The notes beneath the pieces are model-generated. The model was given only the letters and a program-made list of their open reading frames with translations, had not been told where the DNA came from and did not search any database. Source: an uncultured Lentisphaeraceae bacterium (GTDB lineage: Bacteria > Verrucomicrobiota > Kiritimatiellia > RFP12 > UBA1067). Taken from it: DNA of 64,000 nt. A program made the position numbers and the translations under genes. Position 1 is the first letter of the stretch; every line of letters begins with the position of its first letter. The DNA is taken from contig CAYOQJ010000039.1 of NCBI GenBank assembly GCA_964406095.1, forward strand, positions 24,139 through 88,138, written 5' to 3'. Below, piece by piece: positions 21,506 through 53,758 of the stretch.

Positions 21506-22468
21506 ATGAGAATCTTAATTACCGGGTCGGCGGGGTTTATCGGTTTCCATTTAGCCAGGGCACTGCTGGAAGAGGGTTGCGATGTACTGGGCTTTGATAA
21601 TTTCAATGATTATTATGATGTCAGCTTGAAAGAGGCCCGCAATGCTGTTCTGCAGAGATACGCTCACTTTGAGTTGGTGCGTGGAGACATCTCGGATTAT
21701 GTGGCGATAAAATCTTCGGTGGAACGATACAAGCCTGACAGAGTATGCCATCTGGCTGCTCAGGCGGGGGTTCGTTACTCGGTTGATCATCCTTTCATAT
21801 ATCAGGAGAGTAACGTCAAGGGTCATCTCAACATTCTTGAGGCTTGTCGTCATGCGAGGATTGATCGTCTGGTTTACGCGTCAAGTTCCAGTGTATACGG
21901 AGGTAACACAAAGATACCCTTTCATGAAAAGGATAATGTTGACCGGCCAGTGAGTTTATATGCGGCGACAAAAAAGGCCTGTGAGTTGATGAGTTACACC
22001 TATGCCTCTCTGTACGGTTTGCAGACAATCGGATTGAGGTTTTTTTCCGTTTATGGGCCGTGGGGTCGTCCCGACATGGCATATTGGCTGTTTGCGGAAG
22101 CTATGATGAAAAATAAGCCGATCAAGGTTTTCAATAACGGCGATATGCATCGCGACTTCACTTATATCGATGATATCATCAGCGGAATAAAATCAGCATT
22201 GACCGCTAAGGAATTGGAAGTTTACGAGATTTTTAATTTAGGCGGTGGCGCATCGGAAAGACTCACGGATTTCATTGATTTAATCAGCAAATTTCTGGGA
22301 GTTTCTCCTAAGATCGAGATGTTGCCGATGCAACCCGGTGATGTTTATAAAACCTACGCGGATATTACTCTTGCCAGATGCAAATTGGGGTATAGTCCTG
22401 AAGTGCCGTTAGATCAGGGGTTGGAACATTTCGCTACATGGTTCAAATCATTTTATACGGTAGAATAA
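21506..22468 (+). CDS. NAD-dependent epimerase/dehydratase (UDP-glucuronate 4-epimerase-like extended SDR)
   Basis: Rossmann motif ILITGSAGFIG, catalytic YAATKKACE, and the block RFFSVYGPWGRPDMA typical of UDP-GlcA 4-epimerase-type SDRs. Confidence 0.8.
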   Translation: MRILITGSAGFIGFHLARALLEEGCDVLGFDNFNDYYDVSLKEARNAVLQRYAHFELVRGDISDYVAIKSSVERYKPDRVCHLAAQAGVRYSVDHPFIYQESNVKGHLNILEACRHARIDRLVYASSSSVYGGNTKIPFHEKDNVDRPVSLYAATKKACELMSYTYASLYGLQTIGLRFFSVYGPWGRPDMAYWLFAEAMMKNKPIKVFNNGDMHRDFTYIDDIISGIKSALTAKELEVYEIFNLGGGASERLTDFIDLISKFLGVSPKIEMLPMQPGDVYKTYADITLARCKLGYSPEVPLDQGLEHFATWFKSFYTVE

Positions 22469-22477
22469 AAGATAATT

Positions 22478-23626: not shown

Positions 23627-24242
23627 ACCGCAGATAATTATTATTGGTGCCGGCGGACACTGCCACTCCTGCATAGATGTCATAGAGCAGGATAGTCGGT
23701 TTGAGATTGCCGGAATTGTGGACAAGGTATCGGATAAGAAACCGGGCGGTGTGCTTGGTTATCCCTTGCTGGGTTGCGATGAAGACATGGCTCTTCTGCG
23801 GCAGCAATATAACTATGCTTTTGTCGGGGTGGGGCAGATTCGGAATGTTGCAGTGAGACTCAAGTTGTTTAACAGATTAAACGAGCTTGGTTACTTGTTG
23901 CCGACTATTGTTTCTCCGCGTGCGTATGTTTCCGGACATGCTAAGATCGGTAGCGGATCGATTGTCATGCACAATGCAGTTGTAAACGCCCGTGCCTTTG
24001 TTGGGGCTGGCTGTATCCTGAATTCCAGCTCTCTTGTGGAACACGATGTGGTTGTTGGTGATTATACGCATGTGTCCACCGGAGCTGTTGTCAATGGTGC
24101 CGCCAGGATAGGGAATTGTTGCTTTATCGGATCAGGAGCCACCGTTGTACAAGGTGTTGATTTGCCGGATGGTTTTTTTGTAAAAGCCGGAAGCCTTGTC
24201 TGTTCGGCAGAGGTTTCTTCAAGAGGAAACGCACTCATATGA
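23619..24242 (+). CDS. NeuD/PglD-family sugar N-acetyltransferase (left-handed beta-helix)
   Basis: N-terminal IIIIGAGGHCHS followed by hexapeptide repeats (IGSGSIVMHNAVV.. VGAGCILNSSSLV.. IGNCCFIGSGATV). The start overlaps the upstream stop (ATGAGTAA). Confidence 0.8.
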   Translation: MSKPQIIIIGAGGHCHSCIDVIEQDSRFEIAGIVDKVSDKKPGGVLGYPLLGCDEDMALLRQQYNYAFVGVGQIRNVAVRLKLFNRLNELGYLLPTIVSPRAYVSGHAKIGSGSIVMHNAVVNARAFVGAGCILNSSSLVEHDVVVGDYTHVSTGAVVNGAARIGNCCFIGSGATVVQGVDLPDGFFVKAGSLVCSAEVSSRGNALI

Positions 24243-25252
24243 GTGACAGGTCTTATATAATCGCGGAGGCTGGGGTTAATCACAACGGCTCTCTTGCTCG
24301 GGCGCGCGAAATGGTTCACGCTGCGGCGGAAGCGGGGGCGGATGCGGTGAAGTTCCAGACATTCAAGGCTGAGGATTTGGTAGTTGAATCCGCGGAGAAG
24401 GCTGATTATCAGGTGCAATCGACAGGCAGCGAGGAGAGTCAGTTGGAGATGCTTCGTAAACTTGAACTTACAAATGATGAGTTTTGTGAATTACAGGGGG
24501 TTTGTGAGCGCAACGGTGTCGAATTCATCTCTTCTCCATTTGACCTGAAGGCAGTTGATTTTCTTGCGCAACTCGGTCTGCGCACCTGGAAGATTGCATC
24601 AGGCGAAATAACGAATCTGCCCTGTTTGCGCAAAATCGGTTTGATGGCACAGAAAGTTATTCTTTCCACCGGAATGTCTGACCTTCAAGAAATCCAAAGG
24701 GCTCTGGAAGTTTTGGAGTTTGCCGGTACTCCACGCGGTATGGTTGTGCTACTTCATTGTAATTCAGAATATCCCACCCCCATGTGTGATGTTAATCTGC
24801 GTGCCATGGAAACGCTGAAGTCCGCATTTCCCGGTTTGATGGGTGTGGGTTATTCCGACCATACCAGCGGCATTGAGATTTGTATCGCGGCTTGCGCTAT
24901 GGGTGCAGCAGTGATTGAAAAACATTTCACTCTGGATAAAAAATTGCCGGGTCCGGATCACAGTCTGAGTGTTGAACCGCCGGTACTGGCTGAAATGATT
25001 CGTTCTATTCGCAACGTGGAACTGGCGTTGGGCAGCGGCATCAAGCAGCCATCGGCATCTGAGCTCAAAAATATCGACAAGGTTCGCAAAAGCATAGTTG
25101 CATCCAGAAGGATAGTCGCCGGGGAGATTTTCAGTGAGGTTAATCTGACAGTCAAGCGGCCCGGCACCGGCATTTCCCCTATGAGGTGGGCAGAGGTTAT
25201 CGGTAAGTGCGCAGGACGTAATTATGAAAAGGATGATTTGGTCGATGCGTAA
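24239..25252 (+). CDS. neuB: N-acetylneuraminate/legionaminate synthase (NeuB family) with C-terminal SAF domain
   Basis: IIAEAGVNHNGSL..A..MV.AAAEAGADAVKFQTF, and a C-terminal SAF-like segment SIVASRRIVAGEIFSEVNLTVKRPGTGISP. Confidence 0.9.
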   Translation: MSDRSYIIAEAGVNHNGSLARAREMVHAAAEAGADAVKFQTFKAEDLVVESAEKADYQVQSTGSEESQLEMLRKLELTNDEFCELQGVCERNGVEFISSPFDLKAVDFLAQLGLRTWKIASGEITNLPCLRKIGLMAQKVILSTGMSDLQEIQRALEVLEFAGTPRGMVVLLHCNSEYPTPMCDVNLRAMETLKSAFPGLMGVGYSDHTSGIEICIAACAMGAAVIEKHFTLDKKLPGPDHSLSVEPPVLAEMIRSIRNVELALGSGIKQPSASELKNIDKVRKSIVASRRIVAGEIFSEVNLTVKRPGTGISPMRWAEVIGKCAGRNYEKDDLVDA

Positions 25253-26402
25253 TATTTGTATATTTACTTCAACGCGTGCTGAGTGGGGTTTGTTACGTGG
25301 AGTGGCGGAGCTGGTTGACAAATCTGACCGACTTTCACTGCGGCTACTGGTCAGCGGCACCCACTTGTCCGATGATTATGGCAGAACCGTACAGGAAATT
25401 GAACAGGACGGTTTTGCGGTGGAGGAGTGTATTGATATACTGAAGTTTGATGATACCCGCCAAGGTATATGTAACAGCATGTCACTGGCAATGTCCGGGT
25501 ACGGTGAAGCACTTGGAAGAATGCGCCCGGATATTCTGATTGTTCTGGGTGACCGTTTTGAAACTTTCTGCGCGGCAGCCGCAGCACAGGTTCAGCGTGT
25601 TCCTGTAGCCCATATTCATGGGGGAGAGATAACCGAAGGGGCTCTCGACGAGGCGTTTCGACACTCTATCACCAAAATGTCCCATTTGCATTTTCCATGC
25701 TGTGATGCGTACCGCCGACGTATTATTCAGCTGGGAGAAAACCCTTCCATGATTTTCAATGTCGGCTCTTTAGGAGCTGAGAATATTCGCAGCATGCCTC
25801 TGCTAAACAAAAGCGAGCTTGAAATTGCGTTGAACTTTGAGTTGGACAAGCCCTTTTTGCTGGTGACATATCATCCGGAGACTTTGATGCACTCCTCTGC
25901 GGCAGAGCAGGCTGATATATTAACCGGCGCATTGGATGCCTTTCCGATGTGCAAAATTATTTTTACCGCCGCAAATTCGGACACCGATGGAGTTGTGATC
26001 AACAGACGGCTCTCTCAATATACAGCGCGCAACCCGGGGCGTTGCCTGATGGCGCATTCACTTGGCGCACTCCGATATCTTTCCGCGATGAGTTTGTGTG
26101 CGGCGGTTGTTGGCAACAGTTCGAGCGGAATTCTGGAAGCTCCGGCTTTTCGTAAACCGACGGTAAACATAGGCGATCGTCAGAAAGGGCGTCTGCGTGC
26201 GCACAGTGTGATTGATTGTGCTGCCTGCGGGGAAGATATCATAAAGGCTTTGGAAAAGGCCTTGAGCCCATCGTTTGTTATGGCGATGGCTGGAATGTCG
26301 AATCCATTTGAAAAGGAGGGGACGGCTGCGGCTATTGTCAAGGTTCTGGCCTCAGTGGAGCAACGTGACCTGAGCAGGAAACATTTTTTTGATATTTGTT
26401 GA
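25245..26402 (+). CDS. neuC: UDP-N-acetylglucosamine 2-epimerase, hydrolysing type (NeuC family)
   Basis: ICIFTSTRAEWGLL, VLGDRFE and HIHGGEITEGALDE motifs. ATG 25245 overlaps the neuB stop by 8 nt. Confidence 0.85.
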   Translation: MRNICIFTSTRAEWGLLRGVAELVDKSDRLSLRLLVSGTHLSDDYGRTVQEIEQDGFAVEECIDILKFDDTRQGICNSMSLAMSGYGEALGRMRPDILIVLGDRFETFCAAAAAQVQRVPVAHIHGGEITEGALDEAFRHSITKMSHLHFPCCDAYRRRIIQLGENPSMIFNVGSLGAENIRSMPLLNKSELEIALNFELDKPFLLVTYHPETLMHSSAAEQADILTGALDAFPMCKIIFTAANSDTDGVVINRRLSQYTARNPGRCLMAHSLGALRYLSAMSLCAAVVGNSSSGILEAPAFRKPTVNIGDRQKGRLRAHSVIDCAACGEDIIKALEKALSPSFVMAMAGMSNPFEKEGTAAAIVKVLASVEQRDLSRKHFFDIC

Positions 26403-26411
26403 GGTGTTGTT

Positions 26412-27116
26412 ATGTATAAAGATAAAAGAGTTCTGGCAATCATTCCGGCTCGAGGAGGTTCGGAGGGTGTGCCGCGCAAAAACATCCGACTGTTGGCTGG
26501 AAAACCACTGTTGGCCTGGACGGTAGAAGCAGCCGGGGAGTCACGTTACATCGATCGTTGCGTGCTTTCCTCGGATGATATGGAAATCATTGCGGTCGCC
26601 AGGGAGTTTGGCTGTGATGTGCCATTCGTCCGACCTGCGGAACTGGCCAGCCATGATACGCCTGGCATCGCGCCTGTTTTTCATGCCGTTAATGCGCTAG
26701 ATGAACATTATGATGTCGTTGTTCTGTTGCAGCCCACTTCACCGCTGAGGAGTGCTGAAGATATCGATGGTGCCATAGAATGCTGCTTGAATTCCGGATA
26801 TGGAACATCTGTTTCCGTGACGGTGTCAGCCAAACATCCCGAATGGATGTTTTCCATTTCAGAGCAGGGGAGTCTGCTGCCTTTCCGTGAAAAAGAAATG
26901 GCTTTGTCACGTCAGCAACTCAATCCGGTTTATGTTTTAAATGGGGCGGTTTACGCCATTACAACTTCTTTGATGTCAGAGGAAAAGCGATTGGTGATAC
27001 CCGGAAAATCAGCGGCTTATGTTATGCCAGCGGAGCGTTCGATTGATATCGATACCATTATGGATTTTTGTTTTGCGGAGACCCTGATTTCGGAGAGAAG
27101 CAGACATGTACAGTAA
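26412..27116 (+). CDS. neuA: acylneuraminate cytidylyltransferase (CMP-nonulosonate synthetase)
   Basis: AIIPARGGSEGVPRKN and LLQPTSPLR motifs; 234 aa. Confidence 0.85.
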   Translation: MYKDKRVLAIIPARGGSEGVPRKNIRLLAGKPLLAWTVEAAGESRYIDRCVLSSDDMEIIAVAREFGCDVPFVRPAELASHDTPGIAPVFHAVNALDEHYDVVVLLQPTSPLRSAEDIDGAIECCLNSGYGTSVSVTVSAKHPEWMFSISEQGSLLPFREKEMALSRQQLNPVYVLNGAVYAITTSLMSEEKRLVIPGKSAAYVMPAERSIDIDTIMDFCFAETLISERSRHVQ

Positions 27117-28131
27117 GTATTGCATAGACCCTTGCGCAACGCTGTTGGAGGCGATGATCCGGATTGACGAAACAGCTACTGCCAGCGCTGTTGTGTGCAG
27201 CGATGGGATTGTGAAGGGAATTATTACAGATGGCGATATCCGCAGAGCTATCATCAAAGGGGCCTCTTTGCATGAGGCAATCAAACCGTATTACACCGCT
27301 GATTTCATCTCTGTCGGTCCGGAAGCGACCCGCTCCGATGTTCTGTCGTTGATGCAGGCCCATTTTATCGGGCAGATACCAATTGTTGATTCCAGGGGAC
27401 ATTTGCAGGGTATTCACACTCTGCACTGTCTGCTTGGCAGTGATATAAAACCTAATGCCGCCGTAATTATGGCTGGCGGCAAAGGTACGCGACTGGGCAA
27501 ATTGACGGAAAAAATTCCCAAGCCGATGTTAAAGGTCGCCGGACGCCCGATTTTGGAACATTTGATTCTTCACTTGATCAGCTATGGAATCAGAACTGTG
27601 TATATCGCGATCAATCACCTTTCTCATGTGATCGAGGAATATTTTGAAGATGGTGGAAAATGGGGATGCTCTATAGCATATCTGAAAGAGAGTTTTCCGC
27701 TTGGTTCGGGAGGTGCACTTGCCCTGCTGCCTGCTTCCATATCAGATGCTGTTGTCCTTTTGAACGGCGATGTGATGCTGGAAGCGAATATTGCGCAGAT
27801 GCTTTCATTTCACGAAAAGCATGATTATTATGCCACGATGGGAATTCATTATTACTCGCATGAGGTGCCGTTCGGTTGTGTTGAGTTTGATAACGGGCGC
27901 ATCACCGATCTTAATGAAAAACCTCTGATAACAAAGTGTGTTAATGCCGGTGTGTATGTTCTCTCTCCGGCGGCACTGGCGGAAATTCCATGCGATGAGT
28001 TCTACCCGATCACAAAACTTTTTGAGATCGCTCTGAAGAAGGATTTGGCTTTAGGCGCGTATCCGCTGGACGGCGACTGGTTTGATATCGGTCTGCCGGA
28101 TCAACTCAAACAGGTTAGAGGACAAATTTAG
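27106..28131 (+). CDS. CBS-pair + sugar-phosphate nucleotidyltransferase (PtmE-like)
   Basis: The N-terminal ~110 aa form a CBS pair (GIITDGDIRRAI, QIPIVDSRGHLQGIHT). This is followed by MAGGKGTRLGKLTEKIPKPML, the classic nucleotidyltransferase G-loop. Confidence 0.75.
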   Translation: MYSKYCIDPCATLLEAMIRIDETATASAVVCSDGIVKGIITDGDIRRAIIKGASLHEAIKPYYTADFISVGPEATRSDVLSLMQAHFIGQIPIVDSRGHLQGIHTLHCLLGSDIKPNAAVIMAGGKGTRLGKLTEKIPKPMLKVAGRPILEHLILHLISYGIRTVYIAINHLSHVIEEYFEDGGKWGCSIAYLKESFPLGSGGALALLPASISDAVVLLNGDVMLEANIAQMLSFHEKHDYYATMGIHYYSHEVPFGCVEFDNGRITDLNEKPLITKCVNAGVYVLSPAALAEIPCDEFYPITKLFEIALKKDLALGAYPLDGDWFDIGLPDQLKQVRGQI

Positions 28132-34390: not shown

Positions 34391-34563
34391 TATTGGCAGT
34401 CCTTCCTAACTTTCGCATTGATAAGAAATTAAACACTCATTTCAACTCAAATCCGTAAATTTTTCAAGGGAAAAATACAAAATAAAAACGCTTGCCATAA
34501 ATCCCAATAAAAGCGACAATAAAAGGATGCTAAAAGGCGGATCAGATGCGTGTTAGGAGTGTT

Positions 34564-35439
34564 ATGATTCTGAGAAGAGATGGATTTACCTTAATTGAGC
34601 TGCTGGTGGTAATGTCAATTATCGGTATCCTGGCGGCCGCGTTGACGGTGAGTATGCCCAAAGTGGCTGAGCGTGCGCGTGATATGAAATGCAAGACCAA
34701 TCTGAGGAATATCGGTCAGGCCGCGCTGGCCTATGCGGTTAATGTTGAGCACTTTCCGCACGCCTACTCGGGAGAGACCCGTAATTACGAGCCGGGTCGG
34801 GGAGTTCGTTACGGAGAGGTCAAAGCGTGGGTGAACTGGACCGGTAATGGTGTTTGGCCGAATTACAGCCCGCAGAAGTCCATGATGGCGACCCCGATAC
34901 TCACCGGCGACCTAGGTTATGAAGCGATTACGAATGGGGTTTTGTGGGACTACATCGGCAAGGATGCATCATCCTATCTGTGCCCGGCCTTTAAAAAGCA
35001 GGCCGTTGCGCAAGGATTGACCGATATCTGGCGTTCGTATGTGATGAATCGTTTTTTTCACTGGCATAACGGCGACGGCAACGCCTTTTTCTGGCACAGC
35101 GATTTTACCAGAGAGCGCAATTTTACCACCAATAACGGAAAACCTCCGATCCAGCGCAGCGCCGAAACCATTCTGATGTTTGCCGAACTGCCAGCAGAGC
35201 AGATCGACACCTCGACCGATGGCGGTGACGGCGTTCTGGATCCCTACGGCAAGAATGAGCATATCGGCTTTAATCACCGGGTAGGCAAGCGCAATATATC
35301 GCATCTCGTTTATGCCGACGGACATGTGGGGGTTCTGCTTGAGCCTTCGGGGGGTTCGCCGCAGGAGCTGGTCAATCTCACCAAGCAACTCTGTCACGGT
35401 GAGCCGCTGGATCGCAGCATGATGCAACAAATGCGCTAG
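34564..35439 (+). CDS. prepilin-type N-terminal cleavage/methylation-domain protein (DUF1559-like pseudopilin)
   Basis: Class III signal peptide ...RRDG|FTLIELLVVMSIIGILAA, with Glu at +5. The C-terminal segment NISHLVYADGHVGVL resembles the H-X9-DG-type end of this family. An alternative ATG lies at 34546. Confidence 0.8.
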   Translation: MILRRDGFTLIELLVVMSIIGILAAALTVSMPKVAERARDMKCKTNLRNIGQAALAYAVNVEHFPHAYSGETRNYEPGRGVRYGEVKAWVNWTGNGVWPNYSPQKSMMATPILTGDLGYEAITNGVLWDYIGKDASSYLCPAFKKQAVAQGLTDIWRSYVMNRFFHWHNGDGNAFFWHSDFTRERNFTTNNGKPPIQRSAETILMFAELPAEQIDTSTDGGDGVLDPYGKNEHIGFNHRVGKRNISHLVYADGHVGVLLEPSGGSPQELVNLTKQLCHGEPLDRSMMQQMR

Positions 35440-35507
35440 ACGGTTGGTATATTTTATGCTTTTACAGTTTTAAGGAACCTGAATCATAGATAGTGTGGAT
35501 TATTGTT

Positions 35508-38500
35508 ATGAGAGGTAATTTCAGGATATTAATTTTATTTTTGAGCTTTTTGTTCGGGTTCAGGGTTTTGGCTTACAACACTTTACCTAACAGCCGCTTT
35601 CTGACATTCGATGACTACGATGATTCGGTCTGGACCCATACTGGTGATCCTGCTCCGGGTTTTATCGGGGTTAATCTTAAAGATGGAACGGTGCATGAAC
35701 ATAACGCGGGATGGTTGCTTAACAATGTGCGGTCGGGTTACGCCGGATCGTATGGCAGAACCGTGCCACCCGTGGTAGCTACAAATTGTGCCGCGAACCT
35801 GCGCAACGCCGACGATGCCGAAATCCTGTCGCCCTACTATTCGGATGGCTTGGGGACGATTAACTTTGACGCTGTGAATTCAGAATCCGCTACCGCCATT
35901 GGAGTGTATATCGCTACCAATATGAATTACAGCGGTGGCGGTTTGGCCGAAATGCAGCCGCAAGAGGATGCCACGCACACCAACAACTGGAAGCTGGTCG
36001 AAACAATCGCACTCAACCACAGTGCTGATTTCGGCAGGTACAGTGTTGCGGTAAATTATACGGGCGCAGCACGCTTCAAAATCGTGCGACCCTCCGCAGC
36101 ATCCACATCTACGCTTGTGGACGATCAGTTTATTGTGGTGGATAACATCCAGGTATCATATGTGCCGCCCTATGTGGGGTTGTCACAAACAGCTTTCGAT
36201 CTTACCCCTGCCCCTGATTTTTCATCGGGTTCGCTGACACTGCGTTGTACGGTGGATCACTACAGTGCAACTCACAGCGATTTCAACAACACCACGGTTG
36301 AAGTCTGGTATCGGACAGCATCGGAAGCGGAGGGTTTATTCGGGGATTGGAACACTCTGCCAGCCGAATATGTTGCCGACACGGGTGATGCCAACGGAAA
36401 CGGGCGGGAATACGAGGTGATCATTGCTCTGGCGAAAGAGGGTGCAATCGAGTATTACTACTCCTGCAGCTTCGACGGACATTTTGTTCCTCAGGACTAT
36501 ACCGACACCGGTTACGACTATCCCTACTCCTCCGAATCGCTTGCGCCACAGCACCTCTACGCGGATGGCATGAATGGCAATACACCTTTCAGCGACGAGT
36601 GGGCCTTCGGCTCCACTCCGCCTGTAACCGAACTGCCGAACAGTCGAATTCTGATATTGAATGACTACACCGATCCAAGATGGACTCATCAGGGTGATGA
36701 TGCCCCTGCATTTGTGGGACAGGCTCTGCGCAACGGCACCTATCACTTCGATGATAACGGCTGGATACTAAGTGATGCCCGTTTCGGGTTTGCCAAAAGT
36801 TTTGGACGGATAGTTCCTCCGGTTGAGGGTTCCCCGTCGTTCTCTCTGTTCCCGCTTACGATCCCGACCAACAACGCCTGCTGTTTCAGAAATGTTGCGG
36901 GGGGATATATTGAGTCGCCGTACTATGAGGGCGGAGTGGGAACGGTGTATTTTGAGGCGGTGAATTCTGAAGCGTCCTCCAAAGTGAATGTGTATTGGGC
37001 TACGGATATGGATCTGACCAATACGCCGACATATATCGAACATGCCCCTATTATGCCGGAGGAGGGCGGAGGCTATGTTTACAACTGGCGGCTCCTGGAT
37101 GTCGTTGAGCTGAACTACTCTGTTTCGGGTGAATTTGCGCGATATCGCAGAAAACTCAACTACCGTGCCCCGGTAAAGTTTAAAATTGTGCGCCCGAAGA
37201 AAGAGTCAACCAGCTCAGATTTCGACGACCAGTTTGTAGTGGTTGACAATGTCAGAATTTCGCCGCCCCCAGCGGATGTGGTTATCACACGCTCCGAAGT
37301 TGTCCATAATCCCGGATATCCGAATGCCAATCAGGATTTCACCGTGCGTTGTACTGTCGATAACGCCGACCCGAATGAGCCTACCGAGATGCGCTCCGTC
37401 TTTCTGGTGTCGCGCTGGCGCTATCTTGACCAGACGGTACAGGAGTGGCAGACCAATCAGATGGAGTATGTGCAGGGAAGCGGCGATGCCGATGACAACG
37501 GTGAGGTATATCGGATCACTGTGCCACAGATTGGCCAGGAGGGCGACCTGGAGTATTACTTCACCTGCTTCTTCGGCGGTTTCGTCTATGAGTCGCCCGA
37601 TTATACCGCAAGCGGCGTAGATTATCCCTATCCCACCGAGAATCTTTCGCCGCGCACTCTGCGTCAGACGGGGCCGGACATGGGCGACTGGAGCATTCGT
37701 CTGCGTCCCTATGATTCCCGCTACGGAGCGGTTTACATCGTTGCCGATCAGTATGAAGAGCCGATCGGGATGCGATTGGTGGGTGACCACCAGTGGCAGG
37801 GAATGGTGCCGTTGCCACTGATATCACCGACCAATCTGACCTGGTGTCTGATGGCCGAGAAAGAACATCTGGACGGCGAGACGAGTTTCGAGACAAACCG
37901 GCTATACTGGGCGAACTCGGTTCCCTTTACCGGAGCCGTGCCGACGCTGCCGTACGGCGGACTCTGTGCGGAAACCAACAGTGCCGCGCGCATCGAAATC
38001 GCCGTGACAGACGGTGGCTATATGGAGGTTAATTTCAATACGGAAAACCTCGAATTTCTGGTCAACCGTGCCGAGTATCAGAACTTCAACTCGTGGACCG
38101 CCCGTGATGAATATTTTTCCGACAGTAGCGGACAGGTTGATAAACAGCGTTTTGAAAACACCTTCAACGAGTGGGAAATCAGCGAAGAGGATGTTTTCAT
38201 AGAACCCTTCACCTCGCTGAGCGTAACGGATTTCAATTACAAACGCGAACCGTTTGCAACACCGTCCGACTGGGTCGGAGGCAGTGCCCGCTATGCGCAG
38301 GAGAGAACCCTTGATCTCTTCTACAAGCCCGCGGGTATCCTGGACTACCGTAACCTGGCGCTGCGTTTGCGCGGCGGCGATCCGATTCTGGGTTTGGGAT
38401 ATGTCTACAATCAGGTTGCCGCGCTGCCCGACGGATTGAAGGAGGTCAGATTCAGGGCACGCATTGGCCAGAGCACCGATAATTTCGATATCAGCTACTA

Positions 38501-41500
38501 TAAGGACAGCTTTACCGAGTTCAACTACGTTTTTCAAGCCAGTGTACGATGTGGAAAAATATCACCGGAAAACCCCTCTATATCGGTTGTCGGCTACTAC
38601 TCCGATCCAGGCCAGTTTTATGAGTTACGGGTTACGCAGATCGAAGATGGCCGCGATACCGAGAACAACTTTCAGGACAAACGTGTCGAATTGGCTCTGT
38701 ACAAATGGGTCGGCGGCGTTTCAACCCGTCTGGGCAACAGTCAATTCTATAACAATTTCAATATGAAGGAAAAAACACTTCCGATCAGAATTGGCTTCTA
38801 CAATGTCAGCTCATCCCAAACACGCATCAAATGCTCCTATGGAACTGCCAGTTTCACTCAACTGGACTCTTCCAGCCCGCTCACAATGGGATCGTTTGGT
38901 GTGCTTTCATCCGAATGTGAAGCTTATTTTTCGGCGATGAGGACGTATGTGGCCAACTCGGATGCCGATCCGGCCAATACGTCGTATGCGAACCTGATGA
39001 CAGCGTCAGACTGGTTTACGCCGCTGAATGTCTATGAATACAGACCGTCGGGCAATCCGGAAGGAATCTACAAGATCATACCCGAGCAGCAGCTCGATAT
39101 ATATCTGCAGCCAGCTGACTATGAGACAACCACCGGAGCGTCGGTGCTTGGCACCCTCGACTGGGTTCTGCACGATCAAAAGACGGTAGCTAACTTCGAG
39201 TATGATGAGATAGTCCTGGATCTGAACGACTGGCAGGCTAATTATGTTCTGCTGCAGGTCGGTGCGGGCGGTAATGATGTGGCCGTCGATGAATTGCAAC
39301 TCACCTCCTGGCACGGCAAAAAAATCGGAATCGGCGACATCGACGATGATGAGTGGTACACTGCCGAGGGCTGGGTTGTGCCGGATCTGACAGCTCCGGA
39401 CATCACCAACAACCTGATGCGCCTTGATCTGACAAGAGCAGATCCGGATGTGGATCAGGCGATCAGATCGCGCTATCTGGATAACGGACTGGGCATGGTC
39501 GAGTTCAATTACAGGGTGATCACCCCTCCGGCCCGTATAACCGTTCAACACTCCCGCGAGTATGATCAGAATGATTGGTACGATGTGAAATCGTTCTATG
39601 TTTCAAATGTGACGGACTGGGCGCATGCCTCGGCCTATCTGGGTTCCAATACCAACGGGTATTTCCGCGTTCTAAACAACCGTGAGGGTGGTTACGCCAA
39701 TGCAGTGGTTGAGTTTGACAATGTGATCGTCTGGGATGAGCCGTATGTGGATATCACATCATGGAAAGCCTACAACACGCGGATAACCTCGACCGATCCG
39801 CAGCGTCTGTTGCTCGACGAGGGTAAGAGCTGTTATCTGAACAACAGCTATACCGACCAAGTCGATCCCACGCCGCTCGATCGCGACGCGCCCAACCTTC
39901 AGAGCCCGGTTCTTGTCAACGGTTTCGGCAAGCTCTCACTGCTGGCCAGAGCTTATGAACCCGGTGAACCGGTGTCGGTCTATGTGTATGCCTCCACAAA
40001 TGGCTGGCACCTGCCGGTCGAAGAGTGGCCTCTTATCCACACCTTTGCCGATATTGACCATGAATACTATAAGCCATACAGCTACAAACCGGTGGACGGC
40101 AGTATGTATGACGCTATCCGGCTTGAAACCGTTGCCGGAGTCGGCTTAAAACGAGCTTGCATCGATGAAGTTGTGATTTCCGAGCCGGTCTACCCGGGCT
40201 TCGATATCGTCAATGTAAATCTCAGGCTGATGGAACGCGACGGCAGTTTCGGTAGCCGCACACAGCCGCTGCCCTTCGAGGATGTTCATCTGGAGGCGAC
40301 GCTGGCCAATCAGCAGCTTTCACCGTCGAACATAGTTCTGTATGTCAGTTACTATATCGGTGACGACATTTGGGGGGCGGAGAACTGGTTCAACTCGCCG
40401 GAAGTGGTGACCAAGCGGATGCATCAGGTTGTCGGTGAGCCCAACCGGTATGAAACGCGGAATGATGACGGCGGTATCGCCGGTCTGCCGCAGAGTCAGA
40501 TCGGCGGCATAACCGGAACCGATGCCGGCGAGGTCGTGCAGTATCGGGTCTGGGCCAGCTATATGGGAGGTATTCCCCTCTATGAATATCAGGAGATATT
40601 CATCAACCCCCTCTGGTACTACCCGGTCAATTTCAATGTCTCGCGTGCCGCCGAAGGCTGGTCACCATATTATATCGTCTACAGCGTGCCACCTTCCACA
40701 GTCTGGGTCAACGAGGTCAATGGCAGCGATCTGATCTGGGACAGCAACTTCACAACCCAGCATGGAATCTGGGAGAATGCCTACATTGAGATCGCAGTGC
40801 CGGCCTGGCTGGATTTGGGCGGATGGAAGATCGATCTCGTGACCAGCAGCAGCTATAACAACCATACCATACAGATTCCCCCCGGGCTGCCCCAGCAGGT
40901 GGCGGTCACAAACGGCTATGCCTTTTTTGTCATCGCCGAGGCCATTCCTCCCTACCAGCAGACACCCGCACTGCCCAAGGTCGATTTCGCCTACGCCGGC
41001 CTGGCATCATTGATGCCTCAGATTGTGCCGGGCGGTATCCGCCTGCGTCGTCCCGAGGGCATGTATGAGCAGACAATCGCTTACGATGATGCCACCTGGA
41101 ATACCGGCGGCGATTTCTACGACGGCAGTGTCTGGGCCGCTAATGATCCGGAAGGCTTCTTCATCTATGTCGGAGCCGAGAAGAGTGATGGCTCGCTCTC
41201 ACGAGTCGGCCAGGGTGACTCAACCAACAGCTGGGTGTATCCGCTCTTCCCCGAATGGGGGCAGGAAGATCCGAATTTCGCTCTGAACTACACCCCGGGT
41301 ATGCCGAACGGAGCCCAGTGGCTGCCGGATGGCGACGAGTTGTTCCCCGGCACCTCCAATGTGATGATCCGCTCGAATATCACTCAGTTGCGTGCCAGTC
41401 AGAACGGCAAACGGGTGCTGGATTATTCGTTGCGGATGAGGGTCGGCTCACAGACCAATATCACCTACGATGTTGATTCCTGGTATCGGCTTGTGTCGGT

Positions 41501-42110
41501 TACCTCGAACGGGTTTGAGCAACTTCCGCCCGAGAGTGCTTTAACCGAGTACACCTACGGACTGAATAATATCGCCGGTGATGTCCATCTGCAGGCTACT
41601 ATCAATCTGCGTGAGGATTTGATCGATTATCAGGGCGACTCGTCGGTGTTGAACTGGATCATGGGCTTCCCTGAAGCGCCGCTGGTGCCGATGTTCTACA
41701 ACGGACACGAACTGAGTCTCAAAGAGCAGTTCTGGCTGGATGCCAATCCGACTGCCTCCAATGAGTTCGCCTGCGTGATTCGTAATTTCGAATTCGATGA
41801 TCAGACCAATCTGCATGTCAGGATTGAAATGCGGCTCAATGACAACAACATGACCAATATTCAAGGTGACGCCGTGTTGAAACTGGAGTCAAAAGAGGAT
41901 ATGCTCGCTGAAGAGTGGGATATGATCAAGCAATTTTATCTCACTCCGGATTCGTTTGATATCAACAATCAGTGTCATATGGTAATCAACAATCCCTTCG
42001 GATTCATTATCACCAATTATGGGCGTGAAAGCTTCTTCATGCGCATTGTGATCGAACATCAGGATCCGCGTGTCAGAATCTACGAACTTGAAAATGAGCC
42101 CCCTGATTGA
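35508..42110 (+). CDS. giant secreted protein (~2200 aa) composed of repeated jelly-roll/lectin-like and Ig-like modules plus a lamin-tail-domain-like segment
   Basis: One uninterrupted ORF. Signal peptide MRGNFRILILFLSFLFGFRVLA. It contains an internal tandem duplication and recurring SPxx..G.G...F...(V/I)(V/I)DN(I/V) modules. The track start is GTG 35493; ATG 35508 gives the canonical signal peptide. Confidence 0.85.
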   Translation: MRGNFRILILFLSFLFGFRVLAYNTLPNSRFLTFDDYDDSVWTHTGDPAPGFIGVNLKDGTVHEHNAGWLLNNVRSGYAGSYGRTVPPVVATNCAANLRNADDAEILSPYYSDGLGTINFDAVNSESATAIGVYIATNMNYSGGGLAEMQPQEDATHTNNWKLVETIALNHSADFGRYSVAVNYTGAARFKIVRPSAASTSTLVDDQFIVVDNIQVSYVPPYVGLSQTAFDLTPAPDFSSGSLTLRCTVDHYSATHSDFNNTTVEVWYRTASEAEGLFGDWNTLPAEYVADTGDANGNGREYEVIIALAKEGAIEYYYSCSFDGHFVPQDYTDTGYDYPYSSESLAPQHLYADGMNGNTPFSDEWAFGSTPPVTELPNSRILILNDYTDPRWTHQGDDAPAFVGQALRNGTYHFDDNGWILSDARFGFAKSFGRIVPPVEGSPSFSLFPLTIPTNNACCFRNVAGGYIESPYYEGGVGTVYFEAVNSEASSKVNVYWATDMDLTNTPTYIEHAPIMPEEGGGYVYNWRLLDVVELNYSVSGEFARYRRKLNYRAPVKFKIVRPKKESTSSDFDDQFVVVDNVRISPPPADVVITRSEVVHNPGYPNANQDFTVRCTVDNADPNEPTEMRSVFLVSRWRYLDQTVQEWQTNQMEYVQGSGDADDNGEVYRITVPQIGQEGDLEYYFTCFFGGFVYESPDYTASGVDYPYPTENLSPRTLRQTGPDMGDWSIRLRPYDSRYGAVYIVADQYEEPIGMRLVGDHQWQGMVPLPLISPTNLTWCLMAEKEHLDGETSFETNRLYWANSVPFTGAVPTLPYGGLCAETNSAARIEIAVTDGGYMEVNFNTENLEFLVNRAEYQNFNSWTARDEYFSDSSGQVDKQRFENTFNEWEISEEDVFIEPFTSLSVTDFNYKREPFATPSDWVGGSARYAQERTLDLFYKPAGILDYRNLALRLRGGDPILGLGYVYNQVAALPDGLKEVRFRARIGQSTDNFDISYYKDSFTEFNYVFQASVRCGKISPENPSISVVGYYSDPGQFYELRVTQIEDGRDTENNFQDKRVELALYKWVGGVSTRLGNSQFYNNFNMKEKTLPIRIGFYNVSSSQTRIKCSYGTASFTQLDSSSPLTMGSFGVLSSECEAYFSAMRTYVANSDADPANTSYANLMTASDWFTPLNVYEYRPSGNPEGIYKIIPEQQLDIYLQPADYETTTGASVLGTLDWVLHDQKTVANFEYDEIVLDLNDWQANYVLLQVGAGGNDVAVDELQLTSWHGKKIGIGDIDDDEWYTAEGWVVPDLTAPDITNNLMRLDLTRADPDVDQAIRSRYLDNGLGMVEFNYRVITPPARITVQHSREYDQNDWYDVKSFYVSNVTDWAHASAYLGSNTNGYFRVLNNREGGYANAVVEFDNVIVWDEPYVDITSWKAYNTRITSTDPQRLLLDEGKSCYLNNSYTDQVDPTPLDRDAPNLQSPVLVNGFGKLSLLARAYEPGEPVSVYVYASTNGWHLPVEEWPLIHTFADIDHEYYKPYSYKPVDGSMYDAIRLETVAGVGLKRACIDEVVISEPVYPGFDIVNVNLRLMERDGSFGSRTQPLPFEDVHLEATLANQQLSPSNIVLYVSYYIGDDIWGAENWFNSPEVVTKRMHQVVGEPNRYETRNDDGGIAGLPQSQIGGITGTDAGEVVQYRVWASYMGGIPLYEYQEIFINPLWYYPVNFNVSRAAEGWSPYYIVYSVPPSTVWVNEVNGSDLIWDSNFTTQHGIWENAYIEIAVPAWLDLGGWKIDLVTSSSYNNHTIQIPPGLPQQVAVTNGYAFFVIAEAIPPYQQTPALPKVDFAYAGLASLMPQIVPGGIRLRRPEGMYEQTIAYDDATWNTGGDFYDGSVWAANDPEGFFIYVGAEKSDGSLSRVGQGDSTNSWVYPLFPEWGQEDPNFALNYTPGMPNGAQWLPDGDELFPGTSNVMIRSNITQLRASQNGKRVLDYSLRMRVGSQTNITYDVDSWYRLVSVTSNGFEQLPPESALTEYTYGLNNIAGDVHLQATINLREDLIDYQGDSSVLNWIMGFPEAPLVPMFYNGHELSLKEQFWLDANPTASNEFACVIRNFEFDDQTNLHVRIEMRLNDNNMTNIQGDAVLKLESKEDMLAEEWDMIKQFYLTPDSFDINNQCHMVINNPFGFIITNYGRESFFMRIVIEHQDPRVRIYELENEPPD
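35583..37661 (+). repeat. intragenic tandem duplication: two ~350-aa units (35583-36632 and 36633-~37661)
   Basis: Colinear conserved blocks appear in both units: LPNSR(F/I)L, WTH(T/Q)GD.AP.F(I/V)G, SPYY..G(L/V)GT(I/V).F(D/E)AVNSE, NW(K/R)L(V/L), (R/V)FKIVRP, DDQF(I/V)VVDN(I/V), (L/V)RCTVD, EYY(Y/F).C.F.G, DYT..G.DYPY. Confidence 0.85.
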
Positions 42111-42256: not shown

Positions 42257-42397
42257 TTATCGGCTCCTGATCATCATTGTGAGAGTGCCCAGTATCAGCA
42301 GAAAGATAATGAGAAGGATGGTCCGGCGCTCGGCAGGAGTCGTTTCGGAACGTATTCTGTTATACAGTGCCGTTGCTATGCTCGAAACTCTTCGCAT
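42257..42397 (-). CDS. small single-pass membrane protein candidate (46 aa), below the ORF-track size cut-off
   Basis: My manual translation is MRRVSSIATALYNRIRSETTPAERRTILLIIFLLILGTLTMMIRSR. GGAGG lies 4 nt upstream of the ATG (plus-strand tcctcc at 42402-42407). It has one hydrophobic helix flanked by Arg residues. Confidence 0.4.
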   Translation of the reverse strand: MRRVSSIATALYNRIRSETTPAERRTILLIIFLLILGTLTMMIRSR

Positions 42398-49225: not shown

Positions 49226-49954
49226 TTGATTGAAATTTTTGAATTTGCGAGAGATAAAAAGTTGAACCTGATATTGAGATTATGCGTTGCAGTGGCAATT
49301 GGTTTATCTGTTATCGGGCTCAGCGGATGCGCGACGATCAGTAAATTTGCCAGTAGTTTGAAAGAGCACAACCCGTCCGATGATCCGGGGTTCGGTGTAC
49401 AGGCGGAGTTTGTCGAGTTTAAAGAGGGCCAACCCCTGATCCGATCAGGACTGACACTGCGGATCGGAGTGACAGCTTCGGGCGACTCGGCCGTGCAGGA
49501 CGTGACCAAAGAGGTCGATCTCAACGGACAGGTGCTTATGCCGCTGATCGGCGCTGTCAAATGCGAGGGGTTGACGGTTATAGAACTGCAGGAGGTACTG
49601 ACCGAGGCATACAGAAAGTATTTTATCGAACCTCAGGTGACGGTCAACTTTATGTACCAGCCTGGAATGAAGTCCCCTTGGGGTACGGTGCTGATGACCG
49701 GTGAAGTTGCGAAGTTCGGTCCGGTGGATATGCCTTCAACCCGTGATTTGACGGTGACCCGCGCACTGATGATGGCAGGCGGAACAACCCCGCTGGCCAA
49801 CAAGAAAAAGGTGCTGGTCTGGCGCAGGAAAAAAAACGGAGAGCTGACAAAATTTGAAGTTGATATAGAAGCGATCGGCAAAGAGGGCAGGCAGGAGCTT
49901 GATATAAAGTTGAAACCGGGTGATGTGGTCTTTGTGCCCGAGTCGTGGTATTGA
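49226..49954 (+). CDS. Wza-like polysaccharide export lipoprotein (Poly_export + SLBB)
   Basis: Lipobox VIGLSG|C. Segments LNGQVLMPLIGAVKCEGLTVIELQEVLTEAYRKYFIEPQVTVNF and SLBB-like LTVTRALMMAGG...LKPGDVVFVPE. The start is uncertain (TTG 49226 or TTG 49262). Confidence 0.8.
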   Translation: MIEIFEFARDKKLNLILRLCVAVAIGLSVIGLSGCATISKFASSLKEHNPSDDPGFGVQAEFVEFKEGQPLIRSGLTLRIGVTASGDSAVQDVTKEVDLNGQVLMPLIGAVKCEGLTVIELQEVLTEAYRKYFIEPQVTVNFMYQPGMKSPWGTVLMTGEVAKFGPVDMPSTRDLTVTRALMMAGGTTPLANKKKVLVWRRKKNGELTKFEVDIEAIGKEGRQELDIKLKPGDVVFVPESWY

Positions 49955-49978
49955 ACCTTTACGTGAAGGAGTAGATAG

Positions 49979-50893
49979 ATGAAAAAATTGACATCAATAT
50001 GTGTGATTGCGGCATGTATCTTCAGTTGCCTCGGTTCGCTCGCTCAGGGCGTTGAGCTGAAAAGATCGCAGTGGCTCAAGAAAATCGGTGAGTCAGTTAT
50101 GGATGCAAAGATTCTTAACGACACCTTTGCTCAGATTCCGGATTCCGACAAAGTTGAGTTTGTCGAACGCATTATGAAGGCGGTATCGCGCATGCCGGTC
50201 GAACCGGAGAAAAAGGCGGCCACCTTTGTCAATGTTGCCGTTGATTGTATTCAGGGTGCCAGAGGCGATATTCGCTATGATGTAATCGCCGAGGTTTTTG
50301 CGACCGTTCCAGTCGTCTTTCTGCCGGTTGTCACCGAGGAGCTCTCCAAACGCTTCAATCAGGAGTTTAATAAACTTTCTGATGAAGACTATGAAAAGAT
50401 TGCCACATCGGTCATGCGGATTGCTGCTGAGCGCAACACCCGAACCGCTGATCCCGCCGTGCGGGATACCTTTGTGGCCCTTGCCTTTCTACGCGGCACG
50501 GATAATACAGCACTGGAAGCGAAACTGCTGGAACTTATCGGTGATGAGAGAACCGAAAGACTTGTCGCTGGATGGTTGCCCGCGGCGCTGAACGGTGACT
50601 ACGCCGCCCTGCTCGCCGCTGCCGATGTCGAACCACTCAAAATCAATGCTCGGGAGTTTCAACGCCAGGTTGGCCACTCCAATATAGAGGGGATGGTATC
50701 CACCCTCCGTTCCGGCAGTGTCATGGAACAGCTTTTCGTAGACACCTGGGTTACCGATACCACCGGTTTTAATGAGCCGACCGATTTCGGTGTCAACCGT
50801 ACACCGCGATACTATCCGGTTCCACAAGGTTACCAAAACCAGAAAATCAGCGTCATTAGATGCCCATGGTGTTCCCCCTGCAAAATAAAATAA
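49979..50893 (+). CDS. secreted hypothetical protein (304 aa), helical, Cys-rich C-terminus (RCPWCSPCKIK)
   Basis: GGAG lies 7 nt before the ATG. Signal peptide MKKLTSICVIAACIFSCLGSLAQG. I recognised no motif. It is embedded between the export-locus genes. Confidence 0.65.
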   Translation: MKKLTSICVIAACIFSCLGSLAQGVELKRSQWLKKIGESVMDAKILNDTFAQIPDSDKVEFVERIMKAVSRMPVEPEKKAATFVNVAVDCIQGARGDIRYDVIAEVFATVPVVFLPVVTEELSKRFNQEFNKLSDEDYEKIATSVMRIAAERNTRTADPAVRDTFVALAFLRGTDNTALEAKLLELIGDERTERLVAGWLPAALNGDYAALLAAADVEPLKINAREFQRQVGHSNIEGMVSTLRSGSVMEQLFVDTWVTDTTGFNEPTDFGVNRTPRYYPVPQGYQNQKISVIRCPWCSPCKIK

Positions 50894-51012
50894 CATCACC
50901 TTGAGCAGGTCTGCAGGCCTCTGACCGGATTACCATAGGCACACACCGTTTTTTAACGGTCGAAGGAGAGCGATATGATGCAGTTCCAACTATTTGAAGG
51001 AGTGCAAAAGTT

Positions 51013-52224
51013 ATGACAAATAAGAAACAATTAGTCGTGGGGATGATGGTTTTTACAGGGTTGTTGCTGAAAGCTCAATCTTCCGGCGCGGAGGAGCCGA
51101 ACGGGTTGAGATATAACAATCTTTCCGTTTCACCCTATGTGAATCTTGAGTATACCTATGACTCCAATGTGAACTACTCCAGTGATGACGAGGAGGATGA
51201 CAATATCTTTTCAATTCATCCGGGAGTCGATCTGAATTACAAGGGCAATGACTGGGGGCTCAACGGTACCGCCTGGTACCGTCGCGATTTCTATCAGGAC
51301 AACGACCGGCTGGATGAGGACAGCTACGGCGAAAGTGTCGACTTCTACTGGGAATCGCCGCGTGGTCTCAGCTTCCTGCTTGGGCAACGCTATGTGATGA
51401 GTTCCCAGAGCGATTCGCTGACCTCCGAGCCGAACGGACGGGGCATGTGGCGTGACCGCAATGAGTTTGAGCTCAGCGGCGCCCTATCCTACGCTTTCAG
51501 CGAGAGAACCCGCGCCACCATCAACGCCATGTACTACGACCTGTGGTACGATAACGATGGTGATCAGTACCGTCCGCTCTATGGCTGGGAGGAGTATTCG
51601 GTCGGGCTGCAGTTGGCCCGCCAGTTGACCGCCAAGAGCGATTTTCTTATCAATGGTTCGTATCAGGAGTATAAGAGCGACGGGGCGGTTCGAGGTGTAA
51701 GCTCCGACAGCTCCGGTTATACGCTCATGGCCGGTTTCGGTTCACGCGCCACCGAAAGAATCAAATACAATCTGCTGGCCGGTGCCTCGATGTTCGACTA
51801 CGCCGAAGGTGATCAGCTGTACGGTTTTGTCTATAATGCCAATGTAAGTTGGTTGCTCTCACGCAAGTGGGCCGCTACCTTCGCCGGGTCAAGTCAGTTC
51901 CAGCCCAGCGAACGCGAAGCCAATCAGGCTACCCAGAACTATACGGCATCTTGCGGTTTAACTTACAAAATGACCCGCCGTCTGACCGCTTCGATGGATT
52001 TGGCCTACCGCCGTGAGGAAAATGAGTACAGCTACGATTACGGCAACGGAGTAGAAAGTTCAAGCAGCGACGACCGCTACTCCGCGCGTCTGATGACCCG
52101 CTATCAGTTGAAGAAATACGCATCACTCTACGCCGGTGTTGAATATGAGGATCAACGCTCTGATGATGAGCAGAGCGAGTTTGACCGCTTTCGCGGGAAA
52201 TTGGGGTTGAGCCTGCGCTACTAG
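51013..52224 (+). CDS. outer-membrane beta-barrel protein of polysaccharide-export loci (BBP2-like)
   Basis: It has a signal peptide, alternating amphipathic strands rich in Y/G/S/D, and a C-terminal LGLSLRY ending in an aromatic residue. Confidence 0.7.
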   Translation: MTNKKQLVVGMMVFTGLLLKAQSSGAEEPNGLRYNNLSVSPYVNLEYTYDSNVNYSSDDEEDDNIFSIHPGVDLNYKGNDWGLNGTAWYRRDFYQDNDRLDEDSYGESVDFYWESPRGLSFLLGQRYVMSSQSDSLTSEPNGRGMWRDRNEFELSGALSYAFSERTRATINAMYYDLWYDNDGDQYRPLYGWEEYSVGLQLARQLTAKSDFLINGSYQEYKSDGAVRGVSSDSSGYTLMAGFGSRATERIKYNLLAGASMFDYAEGDQLYGFVYNANVSWLLSRKWAATFAGSSQFQPSEREANQATQNYTASCGLTYKMTRRLTASMDLAYRREENEYSYDYGNGVESSSSDDRYSARLMTRYQLKKYASLYAGVEYEDQRSDDEQSEFDRFRGKLGLSLRY

Positions 52225-52258
52225 GTAACAGCCGGTTTGTGATATCACTTTCGTAAAG

Positions 52259-52296
52259 GCGTCTGCGCGGTGTTGTGAGGCATGCCAGACGCTTTT
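52259..52296 (+). terminator. candidate rho-independent terminator after the beta-barrel gene
   Basis: The 7-bp stem is GCGTCTG (52259-52265) / CAGACGC (52286-52292), followed by TTTT (52293-52296). The 20-nt loop is long, which weakens the call. Confidence 0.35.
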
Positions 52297-52318
52297 CTGA
52301 TCGGAGTATTGTTCAGCT

Positions 52319-53725: not shown

Positions 53726-53758
53726 CTGTAAACGATTTTTTGAGTGAGGAGATGTTTT

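Follow-up and report, generated by a model that had tools for sequence, protein, structure and literature searches.

Conserved pairing of a single pseudopilin gene with the gene of a giant Sec-exported protein in Kiritimatiellia

In a 64,000-nucleotide stretch of DNA from an uncultured Lentisphaeraceae bacterium (contig CAYOQJ010000039.1, positions 24,139 to 88,138; hereafter the window), a gene for a prepilin-like protein (pseudopilin) is directly followed on the same strand by a 6.6-kb gene for a protein of 2200 amino acids (the giant protein). A first-pass annotation, made from the sequence alone, described these two genes as a possible pilin-coupled surface-display or adhesin cassette. This raises the question of whether the two genes are neighbours by chance or partners, and what a single pseudopilin might do for a protein of this size. 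Sequence comparisons strongly support the genetic coupling of the two genes across Kiritimatiellia, because gene order, strand and a short gap are kept, because the pair has survived changes of its flanks and because it is recovered when the search starts from either gene. Positions below are those of the window, and features lie on the forward strand unless stated otherwise.

We used the giant protein to scan the GTDB species representatives, which yielded 40 loci, and the open reading frames (ORFs) called in these loci were searched with hidden Markov models (HMMs) of the pseudopilin and the giant protein. A pseudopilin of the same family was found directly upstream and on the same strand in 18 of the 27 loci that included the 5′ end of the giant gene and upstream DNA, and all 15 of the high-scoring giants with an intact 5′ end and the C-terminal third of the protein were paired. 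Full-length homologues thus usually have a pseudopilin neighbour, although the first-pass annotation had allowed that most might lack one. Elsewhere in the flanks of these loci, there was one other match to the pseudopilin HMM in 355,179 bp, and the 64-kb window contains a single prepilin motif, that of the pseudopilin. Because only one other match is present in the flanks, chance adjacency is expected at approximately 0.3% per locus; it was rejected as an explanation. Pseudopilin paralogues, which had been named as a possible trivial cause of the adjacency, are sparse around these loci.

Gene order and strand are constant in the homologous pairs. The gap is short or overlapping, ranging from −79 to +81 nt as measured from maximal ORFs, with a single pair at 234 nt and a 4-nt overlap in locus L023. 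The nine unpaired loci include four short paralogues in which the match stops at approximately aa 1560 (L026, L037, L045 and L048), one locus of indeterminate class in which the contig stops at approximately aa 1260 (L043), and four distant relatives of 3000–3700 aa (L049, L053, L054 and L056). Another distant relative (L052, 23% identity) is paired. The C-terminal third is present in every pseudopilin-paired giant with a readable 3′ end and is missing from the unpaired short paralogues.

The pair lies between proS and leuS in most loci. However, it is flanked by proS and another gene in L011, L036, L040 and L044, by another gene and leuS in L077, and by neither proS nor leuS in a rumen clade (L013, L027, L029, L035 and L042) and in L052. 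In the window, the first-pass annotation had assigned the pair to the core genome rather than to an island on account of its aminoacyl-tRNA synthetase neighbours; proS (divergent) and leuS (downstream) were confirmed, and the GC content of the pair (0.51–0.54) is the same as that of the window. A horizontally acquired island was therefore rejected.

The pairing was also recovered from the other direction. When metagenomes were scanned with the globular part of the pseudopilin, a giant gene was found downstream in all seven close relatives with readable downstream DNA. Pseudopilins with 42% and 38% identity to that of the window were followed by giants with 40% and 32% identity, which a word-index search for giant homologues had missed. 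Over 19 pairs, the identities of the pseudopilin and of the giant to their counterparts in the window track each other (r = 0.97). Both proteins are 23–58% identical to those of the window (96–97% in one pair), where ProS and LeuS show 69–84% identity. The window comes from a Kiritimatiellae metagenome-assembled genome, and the species representative JAGYOL01 contains the same pair at 96–97% amino-acid identity.

The pseudopilin gene (34546–35439) encodes 297 aa by translation; the start used in the database is Met7 (34564), giving 291 aa. The protein begins with MRVRSVMILRRDG/FTLIELLVV (the slash marks the cleavage site), in which the cleavage context is RRDG/FTLIE, with Gly at −1, Phe at +1 and Glu at +5. 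The class III leader announced by the first-pass annotation is thus present, comprising M1–G13, with F14 as the start of the mature protein, and hydropathy indicates a hydrophobic helix at aa 11–41. Gly at −1, a hydrophobic residue at +1 and Glu at +5 are required for processing by the prepilin peptidase and for filament assembly. In the family alignment, the leader and these three residues are intact and invariant throughout, and the globular part contains three invariant cysteines (Cys49, Cys146 and Cys283) and the motif EHIGFNHRVGKRN..H..YADGHV. The protein passes the cut-offs of Pfam N_methyl (PF07963; 34.3 bits, cut-off 21.2, E = 1.5e-8) and of TIGR02532 (35.1 bits, cut-off 16.3, E = 7.5e-9).

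The affiliation of the pseudopilin is less straightforward. It matches SBP_bac_10/DUF1559 (PF07596) at 27.9 bits (cut-off 23.3, E = 3e-6), with only profile positions 5–50 of 268 aligned. Its prepilin motif followed by a DUF1559-like start, as well as its C-terminal ...H...(Y/F)ADGHV, recall the DUF1559 and H-X9-DG families of Planctomycetes, Lentisphaerae and Verrucomicrobia, and many of its relatives are named accordingly by JGI. However, the PF07596 match is partial, no match to TIGR04294 (H-X9-DG domain) was obtained among the NCBIfam results at E ≤ 1, and the C-terminal spacing in the family is H-X13-DGH. The protein also falls below the cut-offs of the pseudopilins of the type II secretion system (T2SS), namely GspG (37.2 versus 88.85 bits, with the match confined to the N-terminal 65 residues), GspH (32.1 versus 80 bits) and GspI (20.5 versus 44.35 bits), the last two with N-terminal matches only, and it fails the GspK equivalog cut-off of NCBIfam. 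The sequence of the pseudopilin suggests a divergent relationship to the DUF1559 family. This family is expanded in the Planctomycetes–Verrucomicrobia–Chlamydiae (PVC) bacteria; the pseudopilin of the window differs from such expansions in being the single-copy, conserved partner of one gene and not a member of a scattered set. In the literature, we found DUF1559 mentioned only in passing.

The giant gene starts at an ATG (35508) or a GTG (35493) and ends at 42110. As first annotated, it lies 53–68 nt downstream of the pseudopilin gene: the spacer between the pseudopilin stop and the ATG (35440–35507) is 68 nt long (53 nt to the GTG), and no terminator-like site was found between the two genes. 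The protein comprises 2200 aa from the ATG, the start used in the database entry (P0001), which is 100% identical to it over 2200 aa, and all of the motifs quoted in the first-pass annotation occur in the translation. The Sec-type signal peptide described there was also confirmed; it spans aa 1–22 (35508–35573; MRGNFRILILFLSFLFGFRVLA/YN, cleavage at VLA/Y). The residues on either side of the cleavage, A22 and Y23, hardly vary between orthologues, and hydropathy analysis detected no further membrane segment, the signal peptide being the sole hydrophobic segment. The mature protein has a mass of approximately 245 kDa and a pI of 4.4.

The giant contains no Pfam domain and matches no NCBIfam family at E ≤ 1; its sole match in a PDB sequence-profile search, methyl-coenzyme M reductase, had an E-value of 1.1 and was dismissed as noise. 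No glycoside hydrolase (GH), polysaccharide lyase (PL), carbohydrate esterase (CE) or peptidase domain was recognized by Pfam and NCBIfam in its 2200 residues or in its relatives, the giant itself yielded no catalytic domain of any kind, and Pfam models of carbohydrate-binding modules (CBMs), LamG, F5/8C and reelin did not match it. The modules, which might have turned out to belong to known CBM or GH families, thus have no such match at the sequence level. The giant is a Sec-exported, acidic, all-beta multi-module protein without recognizable catalytic or anchor motifs.

Its internal organization was resolved by chunked BLAST and hhalign, as a plain self-BLAST gave the identity match only. 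A strong tandem duplication was detected (aa 26–354 versus 376–722, 33–46% identity), the first copy consisting of module J1 (aa 24–222) and Ig-like domain 1 (aa 223–356; together 35577–36575) and the second of module J2 (aa 374–586) and Ig-like domain 2 (aa 587–725; together 36627–37682). In hhalign, J1 matched J2 with 100% probability and Ig1 matched Ig2 with 99.9%. The J1+Ig1 copy is missing from many orthologues of approximately 1860 aa, and J2 marks the start of the family-wide core; J2+Ig2 consists of beta strands throughout in the AlphaFold2 (AF2) model. A central, conserved all-beta region follows (aa 735–1272; 37710–39323), which contains an invariant RAEYQNFN motif and, at aa ∼979–1270, the best-modelled of the jelly-roll-like domains (pLDDT 70–91). 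Modules J7 (aa 1290–1412) and J8 (aa 1440–1562; together 39375–40193) are remote kin of the C-terminal halves of J1 and J2, as revealed by hhalign with a 19-sequence family alignment (J2 and J8, 91%, E = 9e-7; J1 and J8, 90%; J7 and J8, 88.5%; J1 or J2 and J7, approximately 60%). Therefore, of the 'at least four' copies of a ∼180-aa module counted in the first pass, two are strong, and the other two are shorter and related at the profile level only. The C-terminal third (aa 1563–2200; 40194–42107) is modelled as Ig/FN3-like beta-sandwiches.

A further stretch had been called lamin-tail-domain-like. The underlying motif (vWvNEiN...YiEiAvPa..dLsGW.vdLv; aa 1733–1790, 40704–40877, within the C-terminal third) is strongly conserved. 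However, the lamin tail domain (LTD; PF00932) had no Pfam match in the giant of the window or in nine family members; when orthologue slices were searched, one of ten matched, in the motif register, at 13.3 bits (cut-off 34.3, E = 0.11), and a PDB profile search returned no lamin tail. The name was thus overstated, and the likeness is one of motif only.

AF2 models of the giant are all-beta, with mean pLDDT values of 56 (core) and 53 (C-terminal third). Foldseek searches with the core model retrieved reelin repeats (1e-8), Vip3A C-terminal CBM-like domains, GH101 accessory domains, SGBP-B, CBM22, CBM66 (TM 0.62, rmsd 3.7 Å), a jelly-roll glucanase and ConA-like jelly rolls, with E-values of 1e-8 to 5e-4. 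These best fold matches share only approximately 10% sequence identity with the giant and are not accompanied by any Pfam-level match. The C-terminal third matched generic Ig/FN3 arrays only. From these low-confidence models, the giant probably resembles arrays of jelly-roll (CBM/ConA/reelin-like) and Ig-like domains.

The giant belongs to a sizeable new protein family without Pfam or NCBIfam coverage, and we found no published description of it in the literature. The word-index search mentioned above returned 13–15 relatives and missed clear homologues, and its yield is no measure of family size. When the conserved core of approximately 1190 residues (aa 370–1565) was used for an exhaustive profile search, 436 representative clusters, formed at 50% identity, were identified at E ≤ 1e-3, of which 304 reached E ≤ 1e-30. 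Some are fragments with only a few hundred residues and others exceed 5200, most having ∼1800–3500, and the family is abundant in Kiritimatiellia from rumen, gut, digesters and sediment. The extra domains of relatives include InlB B-repeats, PKD, CHB_HEX_C_1/Fn3_assoc and Laminin_G_3, and no hydrolase was recognized among them. Carbohydrate-type matches were found only in accessory regions of distant relatives (Laminin_G_3 in P0135 and F5_F8_type_C_2 in P0012). A Reelin_subrepeat-B match in P0012 lies at aa 227–302, outside the part homologous to the giant of the window, and was rejected as not transferable.

Two side observations concern this family. P0009, a close giant paralogue of 2453 aa (L007 10001–17362; L008 3969–11330; 50% identity), carries a C-terminal fusion to Flg_new_2 and FGE-sulfatase domains. 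No pseudopilin gene adjoins it; it lies in a mobile or defence island, among stand-alone FGE-sulfatase genes and beside phage integrases and BREX-like PglZ and helicase genes. In addition, distant genes of the family (∼24% identity, 2000–3000 aa) occur on short contigs in bins assigned to Alistipes onderdonkii, a Methanomethylophilaceae archaeon and Faecalibacterium prausnitzii (L046, L047 and L050). These are most likely mis-binned Kiritimatiellia or Lentisphaerae contigs in gut metagenome-assembled genomes.

A link to secretion machinery is provided by the next pseudopilin clade, which shows 27–33% identity and is mostly from the rumen. Its members, which are DUF1559-like, close operons of 5–7 prepilin-type genes plus a gene for a 950–1185-aa protein, in rumen Kiritimatiellae (L015 2426–10927; also L066–L074, L076 and L078). 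For several of these genes, homologues are present in an L010 pseudopilin operon that starts with a GspG-like gene (a pseudopilin carrying T2SSG) and runs contiguously with gspF. No other machinery gene was seen beside the related operons. Next to the L010 operon, with IS66 genes in between, are a distant relative of the giant and a divergent pseudopilin of the DUF1559-like kind. The 950–1185-aa proteins have no Pfam match; the idea that they are giant homologues sharing a pseudopilin-binding module in the C-terminal third was rejected (hhalign probability 0.1%). In the cultured Kiritimatiella glycovorans, Sec, Tat and T2SS are present and TonB-dependent uptake systems were not found; the organism is saccharolytic, and export is predicted for many of its hydrolytic enzymes (PMC5148204).

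What, then, might the pseudopilin do for the giant? By analogy with known systems, we consider the chances about evenly balanced that a dedicated pseudopilin couples the giant, as a binder of glycans or particles, to a T2SS-type pseudopilus, which would export it, display it at the surface or do both. The two genes form an operon-like unit; the pseudopilin would be cleaved by the prepilin peptidase, and the giant would be exported by Sec and then fold in the periplasm. The pseudopilin, assembled by T2SS-type machinery assumed to be encoded elsewhere in the genome, would couple the giant to the pseudopilus, which would move it through the secretin and hold it at the cell surface, as a tip or anchor, as minor pilins do for PilY1; alternatively, the pseudopilus may hand over the giant as a specific cargo. 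Glycans or particles would be the most likely ligands of the giant at the surface. In proposing this, we infer physical contact of the two proteins, use of the T2SS, surface display and glycan binding. Presentation or anchoring at the surface by the pseudopilin, and a lectin or adhesin role of the giant, are suggested by analogy and by the fold resemblance of models of low confidence (pLDDT 53–56).

Several observations weigh against this proposal. DUF1559-type pseudopilins are not known to be filament subunits. Pfam scans of the other ORFs in the 64-kb window found no prepilin peptidase, ATPase, platform or secretin of a T2SS or type IV pilus, in line with the first-pass annotation. The fold assignments depend on approximately 400 residues with pLDDT ≥ 70, in models of low overall confidence. 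P0009, the short paralogues without the C-terminal third and most of the distant 3000–3700-aa relatives have no pseudopilin neighbour, so that the giant fold can function without a partner encoded in cis. Furthermore, the adjacency is partly inherited synteny: the 18 pairs are not independent of each other, whereas approximately four to five distinct contexts are.

The same linkage would fit equally well if the pseudopilin-like protein were not a filament subunit but, cleaved or uncleaved, remained anchored to the inner membrane through its N-terminal helix and acted as a periplasmic tether, chaperone or assembly factor. The giant would then stay in the envelope, perhaps as a scaffold in the periplasm or associated with the outer membrane. 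The pseudopilin is approximately twice the size of GspG-type proteins and resembles GspG only in its N-terminal 65 residues, and the lack of machinery genes nearby and of a demonstrated filament role for DUF1559 paralogues would be as expected. However, a leader, Gly −1, Phe +1 and Glu +5 that are invariant across the family, and a sister clade in a multi-pseudopilin operon related to one contiguous with gspF, argue for processing and assembly, and we regard such a tether as fairly unlikely. Alternatively, the giant may be a free exoprotein of the ordinary kind, secreted by the T2SS or Sec, that acts on polysaccharides as an enzyme with an unrecognized catalytic domain or as a soluble binder; the pseudopilin would then be a conserved neighbour unrelated to it in function. 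Most pairs do lie in a conserved hisS-HU-proS/leuS region, a stable housekeeping region where inertia could preserve the order of the genes; folds of the jelly-roll and CBM-like kinds are characteristic of exoproteins that act on polysaccharides, and the export of many hydrolytic enzymes is predicted for the saccharolytic Kiritimatiella (PMC5148204). Against this stand the pairs kept where the flanks differ (L013, L027, L029, L035, L042, L052 and L077), the invariant order, strand and short or overlapping gap, the rarity of other pseudopilin-like genes in the 355 kb of flanks, and the absence of a GH, PL, CE or peptidase domain from the giant and its relatives. These features make a free exoprotein with an unrelated neighbour improbable.

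Type IV pili offer a related scheme, in which the pseudopilin would be a minor pilin and the giant a PilY1-like tip adhesin for attachment or motility. In the PilY1 systems (FimU-PilVWXY1E of Pseudomonas and the minor-pilin/PilY1 clusters of Myxococcus), minor pilins carry the PilY1 adhesin at the filament tip, and a large, Sec-exported non-pilin protein is likewise encoded beside pilin-like genes. The best NCBIfam E-value of the pseudopilin was also obtained with Myxococcus PilA, in its N-terminal part (1.1e-9). However, this match reaches 38.6 bits against a cut-off of 400. One pseudopilin is present here instead of four or five, and the giant, at twice the size of PilY1, has no match to a PilY1/PilC domain in Pfam, its models showing beta-sandwiches and not a propeller. 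The machinery gene beside the related operons is gspF only, accompanied by a GspG-like T2SSG pseudopilin, and thus of the T2SS type. Membership of a type IV pilus system is accordingly the least probable of these alternatives, and we consider it very unlikely.

Coupling to a T2SS-type pseudopilus, the reading that we prefer, has its own points of likeness and difference. Like the components of the T2SS pseudopilus (GspG with a GspH-I-J-K tip), the pseudopilin has a prepilin leader with Glu at +5, its sister clade closes a GspG-led multi-pseudopilin operon related to the one beside gspF, and, in the proposed model, a folded periplasmic cargo would be pushed out by the pseudopilus. It differs in failing the GspG, GspH, GspI and GspK cut-offs, and we know of no T2SS with a pseudopilin that is dedicated to one cargo and encoded with that cargo away from the gsp operon. 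The Verru_Chthon cassette A–D (TIGR02596 and TIGR02598–TIGR02600) also combines pseudopilin-like proteins of the PVC group with a very large protein. However, the pseudopilin scores 17.9 bits with the model of protein D (TIGR02596, cut-off 70) and 14.8 bits with that of protein C (TIGR02599, cut-off 256.5) and does not match that of protein B (TIGR02598), the giant does not match that of protein A (TIGR02600), and the unit comprises two genes and not four; the first-pass annotation had rightly kept the pair apart from this cassette. Our literature search found no relevant study on DUF1559, on Kiritimatiellia with a pseudopilin or on the Verru_Chthon cassette. In Streptococcus sanguinis, the modular type IV pilins PilB and PilC are reported to present lectin-type or adhesive modules at the filament (PMC8179133, PMC9934059). 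There, the module is fused to the pilin, whereas the adhesive candidate considered here is a separate 245-kDa protein.

The pair offers a clean case, in which one DUF1559-type pseudopilin is genetically locked to one identifiable partner and is hence testable. If the coupling is physical, the pattern of minor pilins plus a large tip protein would extend from type IV pili to the T2SS-type pseudopilus, and it would suggest how these polysaccharide degraders bind their substrates. The most far-reaching version of this idea is that the core genome of Kiritimatiellia carries an unrecognized export and display device, in which a single dedicated pseudopilin couples a 245-kDa multi-lectin protein to a T2SS-type pseudopilus. 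We consider this version improbable. If true, it would represent the first pseudopilin specialized for a single giant partner and would give a first functional clue to the DUF1559-type pseudopilins that are so expanded in PVC bacteria. It would also imply filament-mounted capture of polysaccharides or particles in saccharolytic bacteria whose cultured representative lacks TonB-dependent uptake (PMC5148204).

The window contains several further features around the pair. A promoter-like site (TTGCCA-N17-GACAAT, 34492–34520), proposed in the first pass as a possible promoter of the pair, does exist in the 155-nt divergent intergenic region between proS and the pseudopilin gene and matches the consensus at 9 of 12 positions. 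However, such sites are not enriched in this region (12 versus 9.3 ± 2.9 in shuffled sequence), and the site is therefore only weak evidence of a promoter.

A 733-aa protein (19066–21267, reverse strand) has an N-terminal extension of approximately 560 aa without a Pfam match, its GreA/GreB N- and C-terminal domains being confined to aa 569–711. A gene cluster for the biosynthesis of a nonulosonic acid (legionaminic- or pseudaminic-acid-like; 21503–28131) encodes an NAD epimerase/dehydratase, a DegT aminotransferase, a PglD-type acetyltransferase, NeuB, an Epimerase_2 (NeuC-like) protein, a CTP_transf_3 (NeuA-like) protein and an NTP_transferase with CBS domains. Sugars of the nonulosonic type decorate pilins and flagellins in other bacteria; in other genomes, the cluster is not syntenic with the pair. 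An exopolysaccharide export set (49226–56284) encodes a Wza-like Poly_export/SLBB protein, a BBP2_2 beta-barrel porin and a GNVR plus P-loop tyrosine-kinase-like protein, and is kept downstream of leuS, htpG and mnmA in relatives. Finally, a 46-aa ORF lies between the giant gene and leuS (42257–42397, reverse strand), convergent with the giant gene. It contains a conserved ...LTP(A/S)ER(R/K)... motif followed by one hydrophobic helix, and counterparts of 46–54 aa are annotated at the same position in L002, L004 and L005; it probably encodes a real small membrane protein.

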